A stretch of 33,333 bases of DNA, from assembly GCA_043801585.1 (NCBI GenBank), contig JAZDLX010000075.1, positions 1-33,333 of the forward strand. Reading direction: 5' to 3'. The DNA is from a bacterium (GTDB lineage Bacteria; Electryoneota; Electryoneia; Electryoneales; Electryoneaceae). Positions 7,028 through 30,820 of the stretch are shown here, one piece after another. Positions within the stretch are counted from its first letter, which is position 1, and every line of letters starts with the position of its first letter. The translations under genes were made by a program, and so were the position numbers. The notes beneath the pieces were generated by a model. The model worked only from the letters and a program-made list of their open reading frames with translations. It was not told the origin of the DNA and did no database searches.

Positions 7028-7319
7028 CATAGGATAAACCCGGCCATCGAGCGGGCCGGGCCACCTGACGAGACCGTTTAACAATTCGAACCGAGAAACG
7101 CCCTCTTAAATCATTTTGAATCCGTCAGCCGACGGATGAAGAACCTATGAGTTTTCATGTGTTTACACTGAACTCAAAGATCCTTCTCGTCCCGAACCGT
7201 CGGGACGTCAGGATGACGCTCTTTTTTAGTCTTGACCCATAGGATAAACCCGGCCATTCCGCCTTCTTCTGCTTGATGGCAGAATACGGCGGACAAGCAA
7301 GCTGGCCGGGCCACCTGAC
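7028..7319. repeat. REP-like palindrome cluster: two CATAGGATAAACCCGG..CCGGGCCACCTGAC units (empty and filled) flanking a TCAT..ATGAC-type doublet
   Basis: Direct repeat 7028-7069 vs 7238-7319, the second with a 40-bp insert. Between them lies TCATTTTGAA..GAAGAACCT / AGATCCTTC..TCAGGATGAC (7111-7217). Confidence 0.8.
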
Positions 7320-7367: not shown

Positions 7368-8522
7368 TCAGATTTCCTGGATCATTGGATCCGCGGGTTC
7401 AAAATAGCGGACGAGGTTCTGCTGTGTCACATAGACACCGAATGCCGTTTGACGGATAATCCTGATGCTGCCGATCCCATCGCACAGGTACTGCCCGATA
7501 CGGTTCTGTCCGCGACGCCAAGCCGGATCGAAACTCGCTTGCATCAGTACAGATGCGGCTTTCTCTGCGAAATCCTTCGCTTTCAAAGCAGGCATCTTTG
7601 GCGAGGCCTCCCGGCGAACCAGGTGGTCGAACATCAGGTCTGCCCCCTCGGTTCCCTTGCGCGGCAGGGCGACCCTGACAGTGCCCAGCGCGATGGCTTC
7701 CTGAAGCACGGTATTGTCCGGCGAAAACAGCACGTCAACCTTCAACAGATCATCTATTGAATTGCTGCGATTGGCGGAAACGGAAACACTCATTCCACCC
7801 ACCTCACCCGCAGCTTTCAGCAGTTCATCATCCGGCGGACAGCTCGCGGAAGGCAGCAGCAGCAGGGTTGGTTTCCACCCCTCTGCTTCAACGGGTGCCT
7901 TCAACGTTACCAATGCCCCAGCGATCTTGCCTACCCATGCAAGATCAAGGTTTTCCGTGGCAATTGCATAGGTCGTGGCAAAGGTGCGATGGTCGCTGTT
8001 ACGGTAAATCGCTTTCATCGAAGCGAAACGGAGAGGAGCGTACGTCGCACCTCGAAGGAAATGGGTGTACCCGCTTTTGCTGGCGATCTCCACCTCCGCC
8101 GCATAGGGCTTTGGCAGAATGAACCAATCCGCCCAGGTGGGCACGGGATCATCGGCGATCATCACCAGTTCGGCGCCCGCCCGCCAGATCGTGTACTGAT
8201 AGTCAGGATCAAAATCGTTGCCGACCAGGTAAACCAGCGGCCTTTTGTGGTGAGCATCGACACGCTTCGGGACGAACTCTTTTAATTTACTGGAGATCGC
8301 TTCCGCTTCCTGCTGTGGGGTCAAGCCTCCAATCAACTCAACACTGGCGCCCTTCGGCAATTTGTCACCAATCAACCCAACTCCGTCGGAATCCAACAGG
8401 AGCGTGATGTCCGTGATACCCTCCCGGCTCGCTGCCTCCGCCAAAGCCTGCGCCCTGAGCAGATGCAAAGAACCATAACTCGAGTCCGTTTTCGCGCGAA
8501 TCCAGACTTTGATCGCCCCCAT
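7368..8522 (-). CDS. Divergent PseG/SpsG-like GT-B fold protein (nucleotide-sugar hydrolase/glycosyltransferase family)
   Basis: ATG 8522 follows AAAGGAGGT. WIRAKTDSSYGSLHLLRAQALA resembles IRADG..IGxGHxxRxxALA. RGATYAPLR, DVLFSPDNTVLQEAIALG and C-terminal DGIGSIRII follow the PseG/SpsG pattern. Confidence 0.6.
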   Translation of the reverse strand: MGAIKVWIRAKTDSSYGSLHLLRAQALAEAASREGITDITLLLDSDGVGLIGDKLPKGASVELIGGLTPQQEAEAISSKLKEFVPKRVDAHHKRPLVYLVGNDFDPDYQYTIWRAGAELVMIADDPVPTWADWFILPKPYAAEVEIASKSGYTHFLRGATYAPLRFASMKAIYRNSDHRTFATTYAIATENLDLAWVGKIAGALVTLKAPVEAEGWKPTLLLLPSASCPPDDELLKAAGEVGGMSVSVSANRSNSIDDLLKVDVLFSPDNTVLQEAIALGTVRVALPRKGTEGADLMFDHLVRREASPKMPALKAKDFAEKAASVLMQASFDPAWRRGQNRIGQYLCDGIGSIRIIRQTAFGVYVTQQNLVRYFEPADPMIQEI

Positions 8523-8640
8523 GTGGACCTCCTTTGCTACGTGCGACGAAATATACTCGCCGGGTTCCGAACGGACAAGGCAACGTTCCAGCATCAGACG
8601 GGAAAGATGATCGAAAGCCACAGATTTCGTTCAACATAAT

Positions 8641-12969: not shown

Positions 12970-13027
12970 GTGAGTTACCAGACAGTATAAAAATTCATGA
13001 GAGTTTTATACTGTCTGGAAACTCACT
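12970..13027. repeat. CCAGACAGT/ACTGTCTGG palindromic element, copy 2
   Basis: GTGAGTTACCAGACAGTATAAAA..TTTTATACTGTCTGGAAACTCAC, a near-perfect inverted repeat; homologous to 3072-3126. Confidence 0.75.
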
Positions 13028-22531: not shown

Positions 22532-23647
22532 ATGACGAGCCGATCCAGAATCCCCGTGCACTTTGGCGACGCACCGCCTCCAGCCCCGTTCCGATCACGG
22601 CAACCAAATGCCGTCAGGACCCTGCCGAAGGTGGCCTATGCACTGTATGGCACGTGGTTGAAAATCACCCACCCGTCGCCGCCTGCGCCGATGATTCCAG
22701 CGGCTGACCAGGTGAAACGGCTGGTGGCTGTGCAGCTTGAACGGCTAGGCGATCTGGTGCTGATCGAGCCTGCACTGCGAGCACTTCGCCTTCACTATCC
22801 AAAGGCTCAACGAGTACTGATCGCTCCGCCTGGGGCCGGGGACCTCTATGCCGGTACAGGCTGGGGTGAAATCCTGGCGCCGCAAGCCTTGGAAATCCTG
22901 CGTAAAACCGAGGAAGAGCCCTTCGATCTCGCCATTGACCTGACGGGACGCGTGGAATATCGTATCGCGAAAACCCTGGCATACAGCGGGATTTCACACC
23001 GTATCGGGTACAATCGAGCTGGACGCGGGATCTACCACACGATTCCTCTCCCGTGGCCGGAAATCTCTCTCCCGATGCGCAGAGTCTACCTTGCCCTCGC
23101 ACAGGCGCTGGGTTCGACGATGAGCGACAGCATCCCACGCCTGCCCCGGGGCGACGACCGGCTGCAACGTGGCAGGGACCTGTGGCGCGATCACCGCCTC
23201 AACGCTCCGGTGGTACTTCTCCCCGGTGCTCACCAATCGCAGCAACGGTGGGCACTGGGCAATTTCGCCGCAGTGGGAAGGGCGTTGCGAAAACAGGGTG
23301 TGGAAGTCGCTGTCGTCTGCGGACCAGATGAAGAGGGGTTTGCGGGAGCGCTCGCCCAGGAAATCGAGGTTCCCCTCGTTTCGGGTCCGACGATGAGCGA
23401 GTTGATGGATCTTCTGGCGACGAGCCAGGTCGCCGTTTGCAACAACACCGGACCGATGCACCTGGCGGCGGCTCTCGGCGTTCCAACGATTTCCACCATG
23501 GGGCCGACAATCCCGTGGAGATGGTGGCCCGTGTCCGATGCTCCGACCATTGTCTTCCGCTCAGGATCGCAGGGACCGATCGCCGACATGCGCCTGATCG
23601 ACCCCCTCGAAGTTGCCGCAGCGGTGCTGCATTTGCTGGATGAGTAA
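22532..23647 (+). CDS. Glycosyltransferase family 9 (heptosyltransferase-like)
   Basis: QLERLGDLVL, FDLAIDL, LLPGA..QRW, CNNTGPMHLAAALGVPT, GPT..WWP. ATG 22532 preferred as start. Confidence 0.9.
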   Translation: MTSRSRIPVHFGDAPPPAPFRSRQPNAVRTLPKVAYALYGTWLKITHPSPPAPMIPAADQVKRLVAVQLERLGDLVLIEPALRALRLHYPKAQRVLIAPPGAGDLYAGTGWGEILAPQALEILRKTEEEPFDLAIDLTGRVEYRIAKTLAYSGISHRIGYNRAGRGIYHTIPLPWPEISLPMRRVYLALAQALGSTMSDSIPRLPRGDDRLQRGRDLWRDHRLNAPVVLLPGAHQSQQRWALGNFAAVGRALRKQGVEVAVVCGPDEEGFAGALAQEIEVPLVSGPTMSELMDLLATSQVAVCNNTGPMHLAAALGVPTISTMGPTIPWRWWPVSDAPTIVFRSGSQGPIADMRLIDPLEVAAAVLHLLDE

Positions 23648-23938
23648 AGCCAATCCACGATCGCCGGGTTCGGAGAACCCGGCCTACACTCTCCCTGCCT
23701 CGCCGCACTTTTCACCCCCGCGCAGGCGGGGGTCCAGAGGAAGAATGACGACCCGGGAAATGGACCTTCGGTTCACATCCCGGGCCACCCGCTCGAAATT
23801 GCCGCAGCGGTGCTGCATTTGCTGGATGAGTAAAGCCAATCCACGATCGCCGGGTTCGGAGAACCCGGCCTACACATCTCCCTGCCTCGCCGCACTTGTC
23901 ACCCCCGCGCAGGCGGGGGGTCCAGAGGAAGAATGACG
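23606..23938 (+). repeat. Direct duplication (~145 bp) of the GT9 3' end plus two REP units
   Basis: 23606-23750 vs 23792-23938 differ by two substitutions and two 1-nt indels. A partial third copy lies near 23993-24056. Confidence 0.92.
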
Positions 23939-23947
23939 GTCATACTG

Positions 23948-23996
23948 CTGGATTCCCGCCTTCCCCGACGGATCGGGACAGGCGCAGGAATGACAC
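23948..23996. repeat. ATTCCC..GGAAT (dRS3-like) REP with 20-bp loop insert
   Basis: CTGGATTCCCGCCTT[CCCCGACGGATCGGGACAGG]CGCAGGAATGACAC compared with the empty copy at 30792-30820. Confidence 0.75.
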
Positions 23997-24068
23997 ATCT
24001 CTCCGCCTCCCCACACTTGTCACCCCCGCGCAGGCGAGGGTCCAGAGGAAGAACGAAGGGCAAGGGGC

Positions 24069-24140
24069 TGTAGCCCGGACATACCGGTCCGGGGCTCTTG
24101 TATTAAAAAACCGGTCCCGAACGGTCGGGACCGGTCTACG
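24069..24140. repeat. GTAG-tagged REP doublet (REPIN-like)
   Basis: TGTAG-CCCGGAC..GTCCGGG-spacer-CCGGTCCCGA..TCGGGACCGG-TCTAC, the same architecture as 1591-1652. Confidence 0.75.
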
Positions 24141-27454: not shown

Positions 27455-27646
27455 GGCGTTTCTCCCGTCAGCACTCTGTTTTTCTTGTTTTTCTACTGTT
27501 CAGTTTAACGTACGCGAAAATGTTATACTGGAGCAAGGAGACATACACAGGGGATCAACTGGCCGCCGGTTGAATGGCCCTCTCCTACTTGAGTACCTTG
27601 TTTTAAATAGTCCGTCTCCCCTTGAAATTTTCCCTTCAGTAACGGA

Positions 27647-28042
27647 ATGAAGAAGGCGATGAAAGTAAGTGACAAATATCGAATTGTATTGATTGTCGAT
27701 GACGATCCCGATATGAGGGAAATCCTCCAGACAGCGTTAGGCGGTCTTGGTTTTACAACGTACGTCGCCGATGATGGAGATGTCGCACTTGACCTGTTCC
27801 ACAAACATCGACCAGCGCTTGTAGTGTCGGATATTTTTATGCCCCGGTTCGACGGCGTGAGACTGTTGAAGGAAATCAAAAAGGTTTCCAGGGATACACC
27901 CGTTATTCTGATCACCGGCTATTCCCATCTGGACAAGCAGCAGGAAGAGGACTCGTGTGCATTCAAACCGGACGCGTTATTGCGTAAACCATTCAACCTT
28001 AGCGAACTCGTTGAGGCGATCCATACGATTATGAACGATTGA
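27647..28042 (+). CDS. Single-domain response regulator (CheY-like receiver)
   Basis: IVDDD, VVSDIFMP..DG, ILITG, LRKPF. Alternative start at 27659. Confidence 0.92.
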   Translation: MKKAMKVSDKYRIVLIVDDDPDMREILQTALGGLGFTTYVADDGDVALDLFHKHRPALVVSDIFMPRFDGVRLLKEIKKVSRDTPVILITGYSHLDKQQEEDSCAFKPDALLRKPFNLSELVEAIHTIMND

Positions 28043-28109: not shown

Positions 28110-28541
28110 TCACATGCTTCGAAGCAGACGGCCGAGGGAGAGAAGGTCATCCTCGAGTTTCACAAGAGCCGTTGTCGGATCGTTAAAGTAATCGTCACCG
28201 GTCATGACGTTGCTCGCCGGTTCACGCGATCCTGTCACATAATGGTAGTAGCTAAGGGGACGCAGGCGCGCACGGCTGACGACGGAATCGCGTGTAAATC
28301 CCTTCCCTTCCTTTTCACGGCCTGCATCGATAACCCGCTCGATCAGGGTTTCGGATGCAACGTCAAAACCCTCGACTCGAGCTTTCCAGGTTTCACGGTC
28401 CGTTCGATGAACAGGAAGCAATTCTTTTAAACGGGCGAGTAGATGATCCGCAGGAGCCTCGCTCTCAACAAAATGATGTACCGCATTGCGTATCTTTTCC
28501 GCCAGTGCTTCATCGATGAAGGTCAGGCCAGTTTTTGCCAT
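28110..28541 (-). CDS. Hypothetical protein with a possible degenerate XRE/Cro-C1 helix-turn-helix
   Basis: Strong RBS GGGAGGTG. TRDSVVSRARLRPLSYYHYVTGSREP matches XRE HTH spacing. Confidence 0.7.
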   Translation of the reverse strand: MAKTGLTFIDEALAEKIRNAVHHFVESEAPADHLLARLKELLPVHRTDRETWKARVEGFDVASETLIERVIDAGREKEGKGFTRDSVVSRARLRPLSYYHYVTGSREPASNVMTGDDYFNDPTTALVKLEDDLLSLGRLLRSM

Positions 28542-30023: not shown

Positions 30024-30158
30024 AGTTTCCAGACAGAATAATCCAAGAATAATCCAGACAGTTTAGGTATTCTTTGGAATAATCCAGACAGTTTAGATAT
30101 GCTTTATCTTTAAACTGTCTGGATTATTCAGTCTGGGGTTATTCAGTCTGGATTATTC
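30024..30158. repeat. Tandem-plus-inverted GAATAATCCAGACAG array (expanded member of the CCAGACAGT family)
   Basis: GAATAATCCAGACAGTTTAG at 30047-30066 and 30077-30096; inverted 19-mer at 30111-30129; partial units at 30024-30045, 30130-30144 and 30145-30158. Confidence 0.9.
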
Positions 30159-30332
30159 CATTGCAAATGTGTGCGGGAACGTAGTCAGGACAGGCGGAGC
30201 CGTCAAGCCGCTCGGAGACAGCGGAATCGCTGAGCCTGGGGTCCGGCGCCATGGGGAGGTGCTATGGCTTCTCTGTGGGGTAAGAAGAACTGTTGGCCCT
30301 GTTGGCTCGCCAAACAGGGTCTAATTGTTTTG

Positions 30333-30820
30333 TGAAACCCGGGACTGAAGTCCCGGGCCACCCGACGGCGAAGCCGCTTGAGCCACCCAGTTGCAACTAC
30401 TGTGGCTTTGTTATCCCCTGGCTTGACCGGGGGGGATCCAGTGTTATTCAATTCCCTCTGGATTGCCCGGTCAAGCCGGGCAATGACAATGAGAATGCCA
30501 TTAGTGTGTGACCCTGTCGGTTTAACTGACAGGGTTTACTTGTTCTTATTGACAGAAACCCGATCAGTCGGATGACTGATCGGGTCACTCGGTCGCACAT
30601 CTACATAAAAGTATGTCATTGCGGGGAATCCGTCAGCCGACGGATGACAAAGCAATCTCGATGTTTACACATGAAACCCGGGAATGATCAGCCTTCTCCC
30701 CACGCTTCGGGATTCGGCGGACAAGCGGCCCGGGCCACCCTTCGGGCTTCTCATTATAAAGACCCGACCCTGAAGAGTATGGCAACACTCCCTGGATTCC
30801 CGCTTTCGCGGGAATGACAC
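30333..30820. repeat. Mosaic of at least six REP-like palindromic units from several families
   Basis: 30333-30362 (CCCGGG..CCCGGGCCACC); 30410-30487 (GGCTTGACCGG/CCGGTCAAGCC doublet); 30508-30588 (GTGACCC..GGGTCAC doublet); 30615-30659 (GTCATTGCG..GCAATCTC); 30672-30739 (filled unit); 30792-30820 (dRS3-like). Confidence 0.8.

Follow-up and report, generated by a model that had tools for sequence, protein, structure and literature searches.

A 38-base hairpin insert in a bacterial REP repeat likely moves as a unit of its own

Background

The SDR1-8 elements of Nostocaceae, described by Elhai et al. in 2008, are reportedly dispersed units of 21-27 nt that show compensatory changes, precise insertion and self-nesting. 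They are said to use HIP1 as a target, and their mobility is said to have been proposed without a known enzyme. Insertion sequences that target REP repeats, such as IS1397, are kilobase elements with their own transposase. SDRs are also treated in papers that cite this work (PMC4390886, PMC5861425, PMC2884548), and in one of these sources they are confined to Nostocaceae (PMC5861425). According to PMC3733652, PMC6006769, PMC8266576 and PMC3116915, REP and REPIN repeats with RAYT (TnpA-REP), of the GTAG and CGTC families, combine a short 5' tag with a hairpin and are strand-specific. PMC11893778 describes the Ssn nucleases, in which a small single-domain GIY-YIG gene has a cognate NTS/SRM hairpin that both adjoins the gene and is scattered in the genome; tRNA is mentioned nowhere in it.

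Here we describe a hairpin module that lies inside the loops of other repeats. Like IS1397-type elements it inserts into palindromic repeats, but it is a non-coding unit of 20-40 nt. Its likeness to the SDRs covers a hairpin with compensatory changes, precise insertion, self-nesting, occasional residence in heptamer repeats and perhaps its size of about 20-40 nt. Nested copies (C132, L075) and a filled/empty site shared by two genomes correspond to the self-nesting and precise insertion reported for SDRs. Across the family the short form measures 19-20 nt and the nested form 29-51 nt, beside the 21-27 nt reported for SDRs. Differences from the SDRs include: i) occurrence in at least 11 phyla, beyond Nostocaceae; and ii), in a comparison by description rather than by sequence, the use of repeat loops rather than HIP1 as targets and a linked candidate enzyme. 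The module works like an SDR, yet by defining features it does not pass as an SDR, a REP, an SRM or a MITE.

Results and discussion

The insert at 30688-30725 and its host repeat

The window, i.e. the whole stretch of 33,333 nt that was analysed, lies on contig C108 of genome G000, a 3.28-Mb assembly of 225 contigs. The insert is located in a repeat-rich spacer flanked by an MmgE/PrpD-family gene and a gene with a metallo-beta-lactamase fold (Table 1). An earlier note on this DNA had paired 30672-30739, as the filled form, with 30333-30362, as the empty form. Its coordinates and sequences are correct: removal of 30688-30725 from 30672-30739 leaves a 30-mer that matches 30333-30362 at 27 of 30 positions, and the sole alternative with an equal score shifts the cut by 1 nt. 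Excision of 7258-7297 gives a match to 7030-7069 at 38 of 40 positions. The CAAG at the end of the insert is followed by CGGC, and the inner stems of the 7258 and 30688 inserts both pair in the manner proposed there. The allelic reading has to be given up, since 30333-30362 belongs to a set of 13 identical paralogous copies, each scoring 27/30 against the reconstructed empty site.

The 30688 copy carries an A-G mismatch in the outer stem and one broken inner pair. As single-stranded DNA, the filled unit 30672-30739 folds no better than its shuffles (z +0.84 and +0.65); the stretch 7245-7315 folds much better (z -5.3). The insert is identical to a copy on contig C209 at 35 of 38 positions, and its host and site are common to the C209 copy and to a copy in the genome of a sister species (G001). 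The seven filled A1 hosts carry short, GC-closed or TCCCGA inner parts. The 30688 copy is decaying and has the same host, site and cassette as other filled copies, so it may have arrived as, or descend from, a pre-filled repeat. The proposal of independent insertion at two loci survives in that 7258 and 30688 are separate events, differing in host subfamily, loop register and inner stem, but it is weakened by the possible arrival of the 30688 copy in a filled repeat. Independence was judged by direct comparison of host, register and cassette, REP arms being too short for a tree.

The G001 spacer orthologous to the 30688 locus is rearranged and lacks both repeats, so it offers no allelic comparison there. 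One sequencing run (share 0.07) gave no cover over the insert, and Rfam gave no match to insert or module at the gathering score.

Table 1. Positions of the insert, related modules and cassettes, and their host repeats in the window
Feature	Position	Strand	Basis
Decayed 38-nt nested insert with CYTG tag, outer stem, GA-rich 3x3 internal loop and inner cassette	30688..30725	-	excision, folding
4-nt tag (CTTG on -, CAAG on +), which forms the module's 5' end on the strand that is likely active	30722..30725	-	
Inner stem, a decayed copy of the 16-nt TCCCGA-N4-TCGGGA cassette	30697..30712	.	
Filled host, GTGG-tagged REP subfamily A1	30672..30739	-	~43 empty and 7 filled A1 copies by regex
Empty REP of subfamily A1 (13 exact paralogues in all), not an allele of 30672	30333..30362	-	
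40-nt nested insert, stems intact, inner stem unique; other loop position in REP subfamily A2	7258..7297	-	
Empty A2 REP adjoining filled 7240-7319	7030..7069	-	
Third insert of the window: 20-nt sister module, CCTG tag and TCCCGA hairpin	23963..23982	-	excision gives 22/22 empty match
SRM/CGTC-type repeat hosting the 23963-23982 insert	about 23949-23995		
Untagged 16-nt TCCGTC hairpin cassette capping GTCATTGC-type repeat	30629..30644, also 7121-7136	.	
Untagged TCCCGA cassette within GTCATCCTG-type repeat	7190..7205, another 24115-24130	.	

Architecture and separability of the module

On the tagged strand of its hosts (minus in this window) the module reads CYTG, TCCGCC, GWA, inner stem, GAA and GGCGGA; in the short form a 4-nt loop stands in place of GWA, inner stem and GAA. 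The short form has 22 matches in the genome versus a single match in each of three Markov-4 simulations, and the nested form has five matches versus none in any of the three. A sister short form with the stem TCCCGA/TCGGGA, in which three pairs are altered on both sides, is present in six perfect copies. With one deviation allowed, G000 holds 43 modules of 19-40 nt, 42 of them with full flanks. In 31 of these 42, excision restores a known empty repeat, defined as one present at least twice when up to 3 mismatches in 22 nt are allowed; of 60 random 20-nt excisions, none does so.

The hosts comprise several GTGG subfamilies, GTAG and CGTC-type repeats, the loop of the module itself and a unique 5' UTR, and modules also occupy heptamer repeats and tRNA-derived copies. 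In one host subfamily the module is found at two registers, three bases apart, which excludes a single ancestral insertion. Structured and strand-specific, the module is separable from its hosts and sits at unpaired positions within other elements, with no duplication of the target. We regard it as very probably a separate insertable unit, and the 38-base hairpin insert likely moves as a unit of its own.

The earlier note assigned CAAG, which is CYTG on the opposite strand, to the element rather than to a target duplication, and this assignment is borne out on two counts. CYTG stands 5' of 52 of 120 matches to a tag-free search pattern, always on the GWA...GAA strand, and no direct repeat flanks 168 of 187 distinct sites (control 174.8), so that the target-site duplication typical of MITEs is absent. 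A short 5' tag, a hairpin and strand specificity are what the module has in common with REP/RAYT systems, and its host repeats are ordinary REPs that flank Y1 genes. The GTAG/GTGG tag 0-2 nt 5' of the hairpin is present in these hosts but not in the module, where GTGG occurs in 2 of the 120 matches. It further differs from REPs in that it inserts into the loops of other repeats, was not seen to form doublets as its unit and flanks no cognate Y1 gene among the 13 of G000. Nor does it begin with the CGTC-type SRM consensus, being a passenger inside SRM hosts.

Untagged 16-nt TC...GA hairpins with the stems TCCGCC, TCCCGA, TCCGTC, TCAGTC and TGCCGA cap several G000 repeat families. TCCGCC hairpins number 59 in G000, 22 in G001 and at most 12 in each of 14 other family members, and the 16-nt TCCCGA-N4-TCGGGA cassette has 41 perfect copies in G000.

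Inner stem and pairing constraints

The inner stem had been described as replaced but still paired. Our comparison shows block-swapped cassettes, not aligned columns with compensatory point changes, and suggests that the inner stem must pair but would be free in sequence, so that whole cassettes could be exchanged. Pairing was judged by direct pair counts with permutations. At least two Watson-Crick closing pairs are found in 81 of 105 distinct inner sequences, and at the third inner position Watson-Crick pairing is seen in 85 of 101 types, where permutation gives 32.5. The combinations at outer pair 1 are T-A in 19, C-G in 19, T-G in three and another in eight (n = 49 with a paired inner part), a count drawn from 82 distinct viral-contig matches to a relaxed pattern, which may be few events copied often. 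Imperfect outer pairs on the CYTG strand are G-T in 15 cases, A-C in two and other in two (250 copies). On the same strand, sheared G-A pairs could arise within the GA-rich internal loop. The idea of structure-level selection is retained for the module family, where pair counts exceed chance expectation and structural constraint is visible, but not for the decayed 30688 copy, where no such constraint is seen.

Inner types with a length that is a multiple of three make up 70 of 105, many of them point variants of one another, and an open-frame check of this bias gave 93/147, 12/16 and 10/22. A relaxed scan for the internal loop was noisy (116 matches; commonest properly paired classes GTA/GAA with eight and GAA/GAA with six) and is not counted as support. 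A short-form scan of viral contigs returned mostly chance matches and was discarded.

Junctions and targets

Within empty sites, pairing is lowest at the junction (unpaired 0.68 and 0.74, against about 0.4), and a stem of at least 5 bp encloses it in 49 of 187 sites versus 11.7 permuted (maximum 20). Two results speak against hairpins as the sole kind of target: just 49 of the 187 sites are in a clear stem, and the mean folding energy of empty 60-mers equals that of DNA nearby (-8.9 versus -8.75). Modules lie at period-7 (heptamer) repeats in 4 of 187 sites versus 1.4 in the control. The two ends of the module behave differently. The base at -1, just 5' of the tag, deviates from the empty consensus in 11 of 31 G000 sites, the base at +1, which follows the module on its 3' side, in 1 of 31, and the remaining positions together in 42 of 651. 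The -1 excess has p about 1e-5 (computed with 43 in place of 42); module copies are phylogenetically non-independent, so this and all other p values overstate the significance.

Distribution and orthologous sites

An exact pattern for the nested form matches at least 121 loci in species genomes, and the record titles of the 80 matches listed name at least 11 phyla. Five Bradyrhizobium genomes contain 6-31 copies each, with none in the reversed control. Nested modules within heptamer-like tandem repeats were noted at L069, L196, L215 and L051; by eye, the one at L069 appears to be in frame in a recombinase-like gene.

One orthologous site has an exact 20-nt short module in G001 that is absent in G000, within surrounding non-repeat DNA that can be aligned. 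In both genomes it lies upstream of the same gene, presumably fumarase-like from its N-terminal motif. It is the one clear G001-G000 pair (L029) among 17 element sites checked; a second candidate pair, L993, was rejected as a chance match in coding DNA. The site is flanked by a 6-nt repeat that permits slippage loss, and the pair is unpolarised, as the upstream DNA of 14 family members does not align there. An allelic comparison in Bradyrhizobium, covering one three-element region in 61 genomes with 29 loci inspected, gave no pair, the host repeats turning over wholesale.

A candidate partner: small tRNA-linked GIY-YIG nucleases

In five small element-bearing genomes, GIY-YIG genes of about 80 residues adjoin a tRNA gene and a tRNA-derived copy. 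In these copies the same hairpins fill the arms or stand in their place; the TCCCGA cassette is among them, as is a hairpin with a CAAG tail. In G000 the lone gene of nuclease clade A1 lies on contig C174 (22540-22915; L156, L768): tRNA-Asn is followed directly by a 79-residue GIY-YIG gene and then by a copy of the tRNA 3' half in which a TCCGCC hairpin takes the place of part of the anticodon arm. This hairpin lies 7 nt past the stop codon and has no CYTG tag. Similar layouts at tRNA-Asn were observed at L910-L912 and L914.

A tRNA lies within 300 nt of 31 of 46 genes of clade A1, many of which come from one genome (G107), versus none of 57 Ssn genes. A strict TCC...GGA hairpin is found within 250 nt of 13 of the 46, or 7 of 36 once the ten seeds are left out, versus 0 of 57 Ssn (cd10448-type) genes and 1 of 40 distal windows. 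A fresh set of the subclade A4 comprised 35 loci (40 returned; two training copies, two tandem duplicates and one unpublished genome dropped), 22 of them with a tRNA near. The nested architecture, searched with a pattern that demanded pairing, was present upstream (within 300 nt) at 11 of 35 loci and downstream at none of the 35; distal controls gave 0 of 34. Among the 11 positives only L948 carries the exact module, twice; the other ten have variant stems.

Module-type hairpins, like the Ssn hairpins, are associated with a small single-domain GIY-YIG gene, although of a different clade (7/36, 11/35), which is set apart from Ssn by a separate profile, its tRNA adjacency and a different hairpin. 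The nearest solved structures to the module-linked clade are UPF0213 and Slx1 proteins, and NCBIfam has no model for it. In the phylum profile the link is weak: clade genes are present in 2 of 7 element-rich and 4 of 71 other genomes (p 0.09), with G003, which has a high control count, placed in the group of 71. Modules but no detected clade gene were found in G001 (94% complete), in the closed Bradyrhizobium genome G041 and in G136, which gave no match at all. A viral search for the clade returned phage homing endonucleases only, and a plasmid tblastn gave no match. We see roughly even chances that this clade is the partner enzyme of the module.

Two genomes of about 1 Mb, G107 and G108 (the L058/L106/L110 genomes), have 19 and 13 GIY-YIG matches, many of them adjoining tRNA genes. 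In G355 (C26:22853-23814; L932, L945, L951) three near-identical small GIY-YIG genes form a 364-nt tandem array beside tRNA-Lys.

Possible mechanism and alternatives

The model that we favour could go either way on present data: the module would be a non-autonomous ssDNA element, with a small tRNA-linked GIY-YIG nuclease as its predicted partner. The nuclease would recognise the folded CYTG strand and cut at the foot of the hairpin, and the released oligonucleotide would be joined into unpaired DNA, in many cases behind a GA or GG that resembles the oligonucleotide's own 3' end. Joining would leave a clean 3' end and frequently a 1-nt change at the 5' end, and might be carried out in loops by host repair or a resident HUH enzyme; GIY-YIG nucleases act by hydrolysis, and no joining step is known for them. 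Once in a REP, the module would likely travel as a passenger whenever the REP's own transposase copies the repeat. We advance the cut-and-join details only tentatively.

Transposition by the HUH (RAYT/Y1) enzymes of the host repeats, with a cut in or near the REP loop and an attack of the hairpin 3'-OH on the phosphotyrosine, would also make the module a mobile ssDNA, and we consider it unlikely. G000 does have 13 Y1 genes, six flanked by GTGG/GTAG repeats of the host type and five longer ones with their own inverted repeats; Y1 genes occur in 4 of 5 other element-bearing genomes, and a clean 3' with an altered 5' junction fits one-sided strand transfer. The tag-plus-hairpin anatomy resembles that of REP (PMC6006769), and several sites are C^T steps, CT being a TnpA-REP cleavage site (PMC8266576). 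However, the module does not flank any Y1 gene (13 examined) or Ssn gene in G000 in the manner of a cognate repeat, and the one Y1 gene of 13 that lies near a tagged module has it as a passenger in a host REP; GTCATTGC repeats are those that flank an Ssn-type gene in this genome. The tag is CYTG, not GTRG, and the commonest junction step is GA|AG (44 of 187), not C^T. Modules in CGTC/SRM hosts, heptamer repeats, tRNA-derived copies and a unique UTR, together with a module-bearing genome that gives no Y1 match (G107), also speak against this route.

We also judge it unlikely that no dedicated enzyme is involved and that apical cassettes are copied from repeat to repeat by polymerase template switching or by gene conversion while hairpins are transiently folded, the host repeats then amplifying the chimaeras. 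Such copying does not account for ends that agree across at least 11 phyla, for a constant orientation with respect to the host tags, for insertions of exact length into hosts that lack homology, or for the strand bias of the wobble. It draws support from the abundance of untagged cassettes (CYTG is carried by just 14 of 58 perfect TCCGCC-N4-GGCGGA hairpins in G000) and from the TCCCGA cassette found between GA and GAA in two repeat families (three copies and one). It would also suit the single host site shared by all nested copies in G000 except one, and the many Bradyrhizobium copies with a common host, site and inner stem.

An RNA intermediate with reverse transcription primed at a nick, reportedly proposed for cyanobacterial SDRs, is quite improbable. 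Wobbles of the G-U type tolerated on one strand agree with it but do not separate RNA from ssDNA. The variable junction is the 5' one, and modules lie beside tRNA genes at 5 of 7 loci in small genomes, as this route would allow; target duplication and an Rfam match are lacking, however, and the neighbouring candidate gene has a DNA nuclease fold. That the 30688 stretch is a mere long-loop REP variant without mobility of its own is hardly credible and already largely refuted by the presence of the same module at more than one register, within its own loop, outside repeats and in hosts that are not related to one another, even though this copy is decayed and long complementary REP loops are known, including GCGG/CCGC loops of up to 27 bp in Bradyrhizobium (PMC3733652). 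These long GCGG/CCGC loops reported by Di Nocera may in turn be the module read as a loop variant; the module motif had no match in four supplements of that paper.

Taken further, the nuclease-partner model leads to a proposal that we hold with less than even confidence: a pan-bacterial mobile ssDNA hairpin of 20-40 nt and a tRNA-linked GIY-YIG clade of about 80 residues would form a third enzyme-hairpin system beside RAYT/REP and Ssn/SRM, parasitising both via loop insertion, with the inner stem as a swappable cargo slot. If so, many small "repair-like" GIY-YIG genes would be selfish, and a structure-guided loop cutter or inserter with a free cargo stem would be of interest to tool builders. 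If mobile as its own unit, the module would rank among the smallest mobile DNAs. The spread of 20-40-nt bacterial repeats becomes testable with oligonucleotides, given a defined substrate, targets, a junction signature and a candidate enzyme of 79 residues. In the literature searched, figures and most subscription papers being outside its reach, we found no description of the module or of tRNA-linked bacterial GIY-YIG cassettes; new here are the controlled link to a nuclease clade, the asymmetries of strand and junction, and the recognition of the 30688 copy as a decayed passenger.

Other features of the window

Upstream of the MmgE/PrpD-family gene, a 64-nt non-coding stretch (30171-30233) is 94% identical in G001 versus 76-82% for neighbouring genes; it may be a leader or small RNA and has no Rfam match. 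Long inverted repeats at 30047-30145 and 12970-13026 share a CAGACAG core (77 motif matches in the genome) and resemble those flanking a 220-residue Y1 gene on C206, being probably of the TIRYT type. Three open frames on the minus strand (7368-8621, 27523-27915 and 28110-28541; 417, 130 and 143 codons) have no Pfam or NCBIfam match. At 23601-24120, a 186-nt mosaic in tandem combines at least four families of repeats and holds the third filled site and an untagged TCCCGA cassette.
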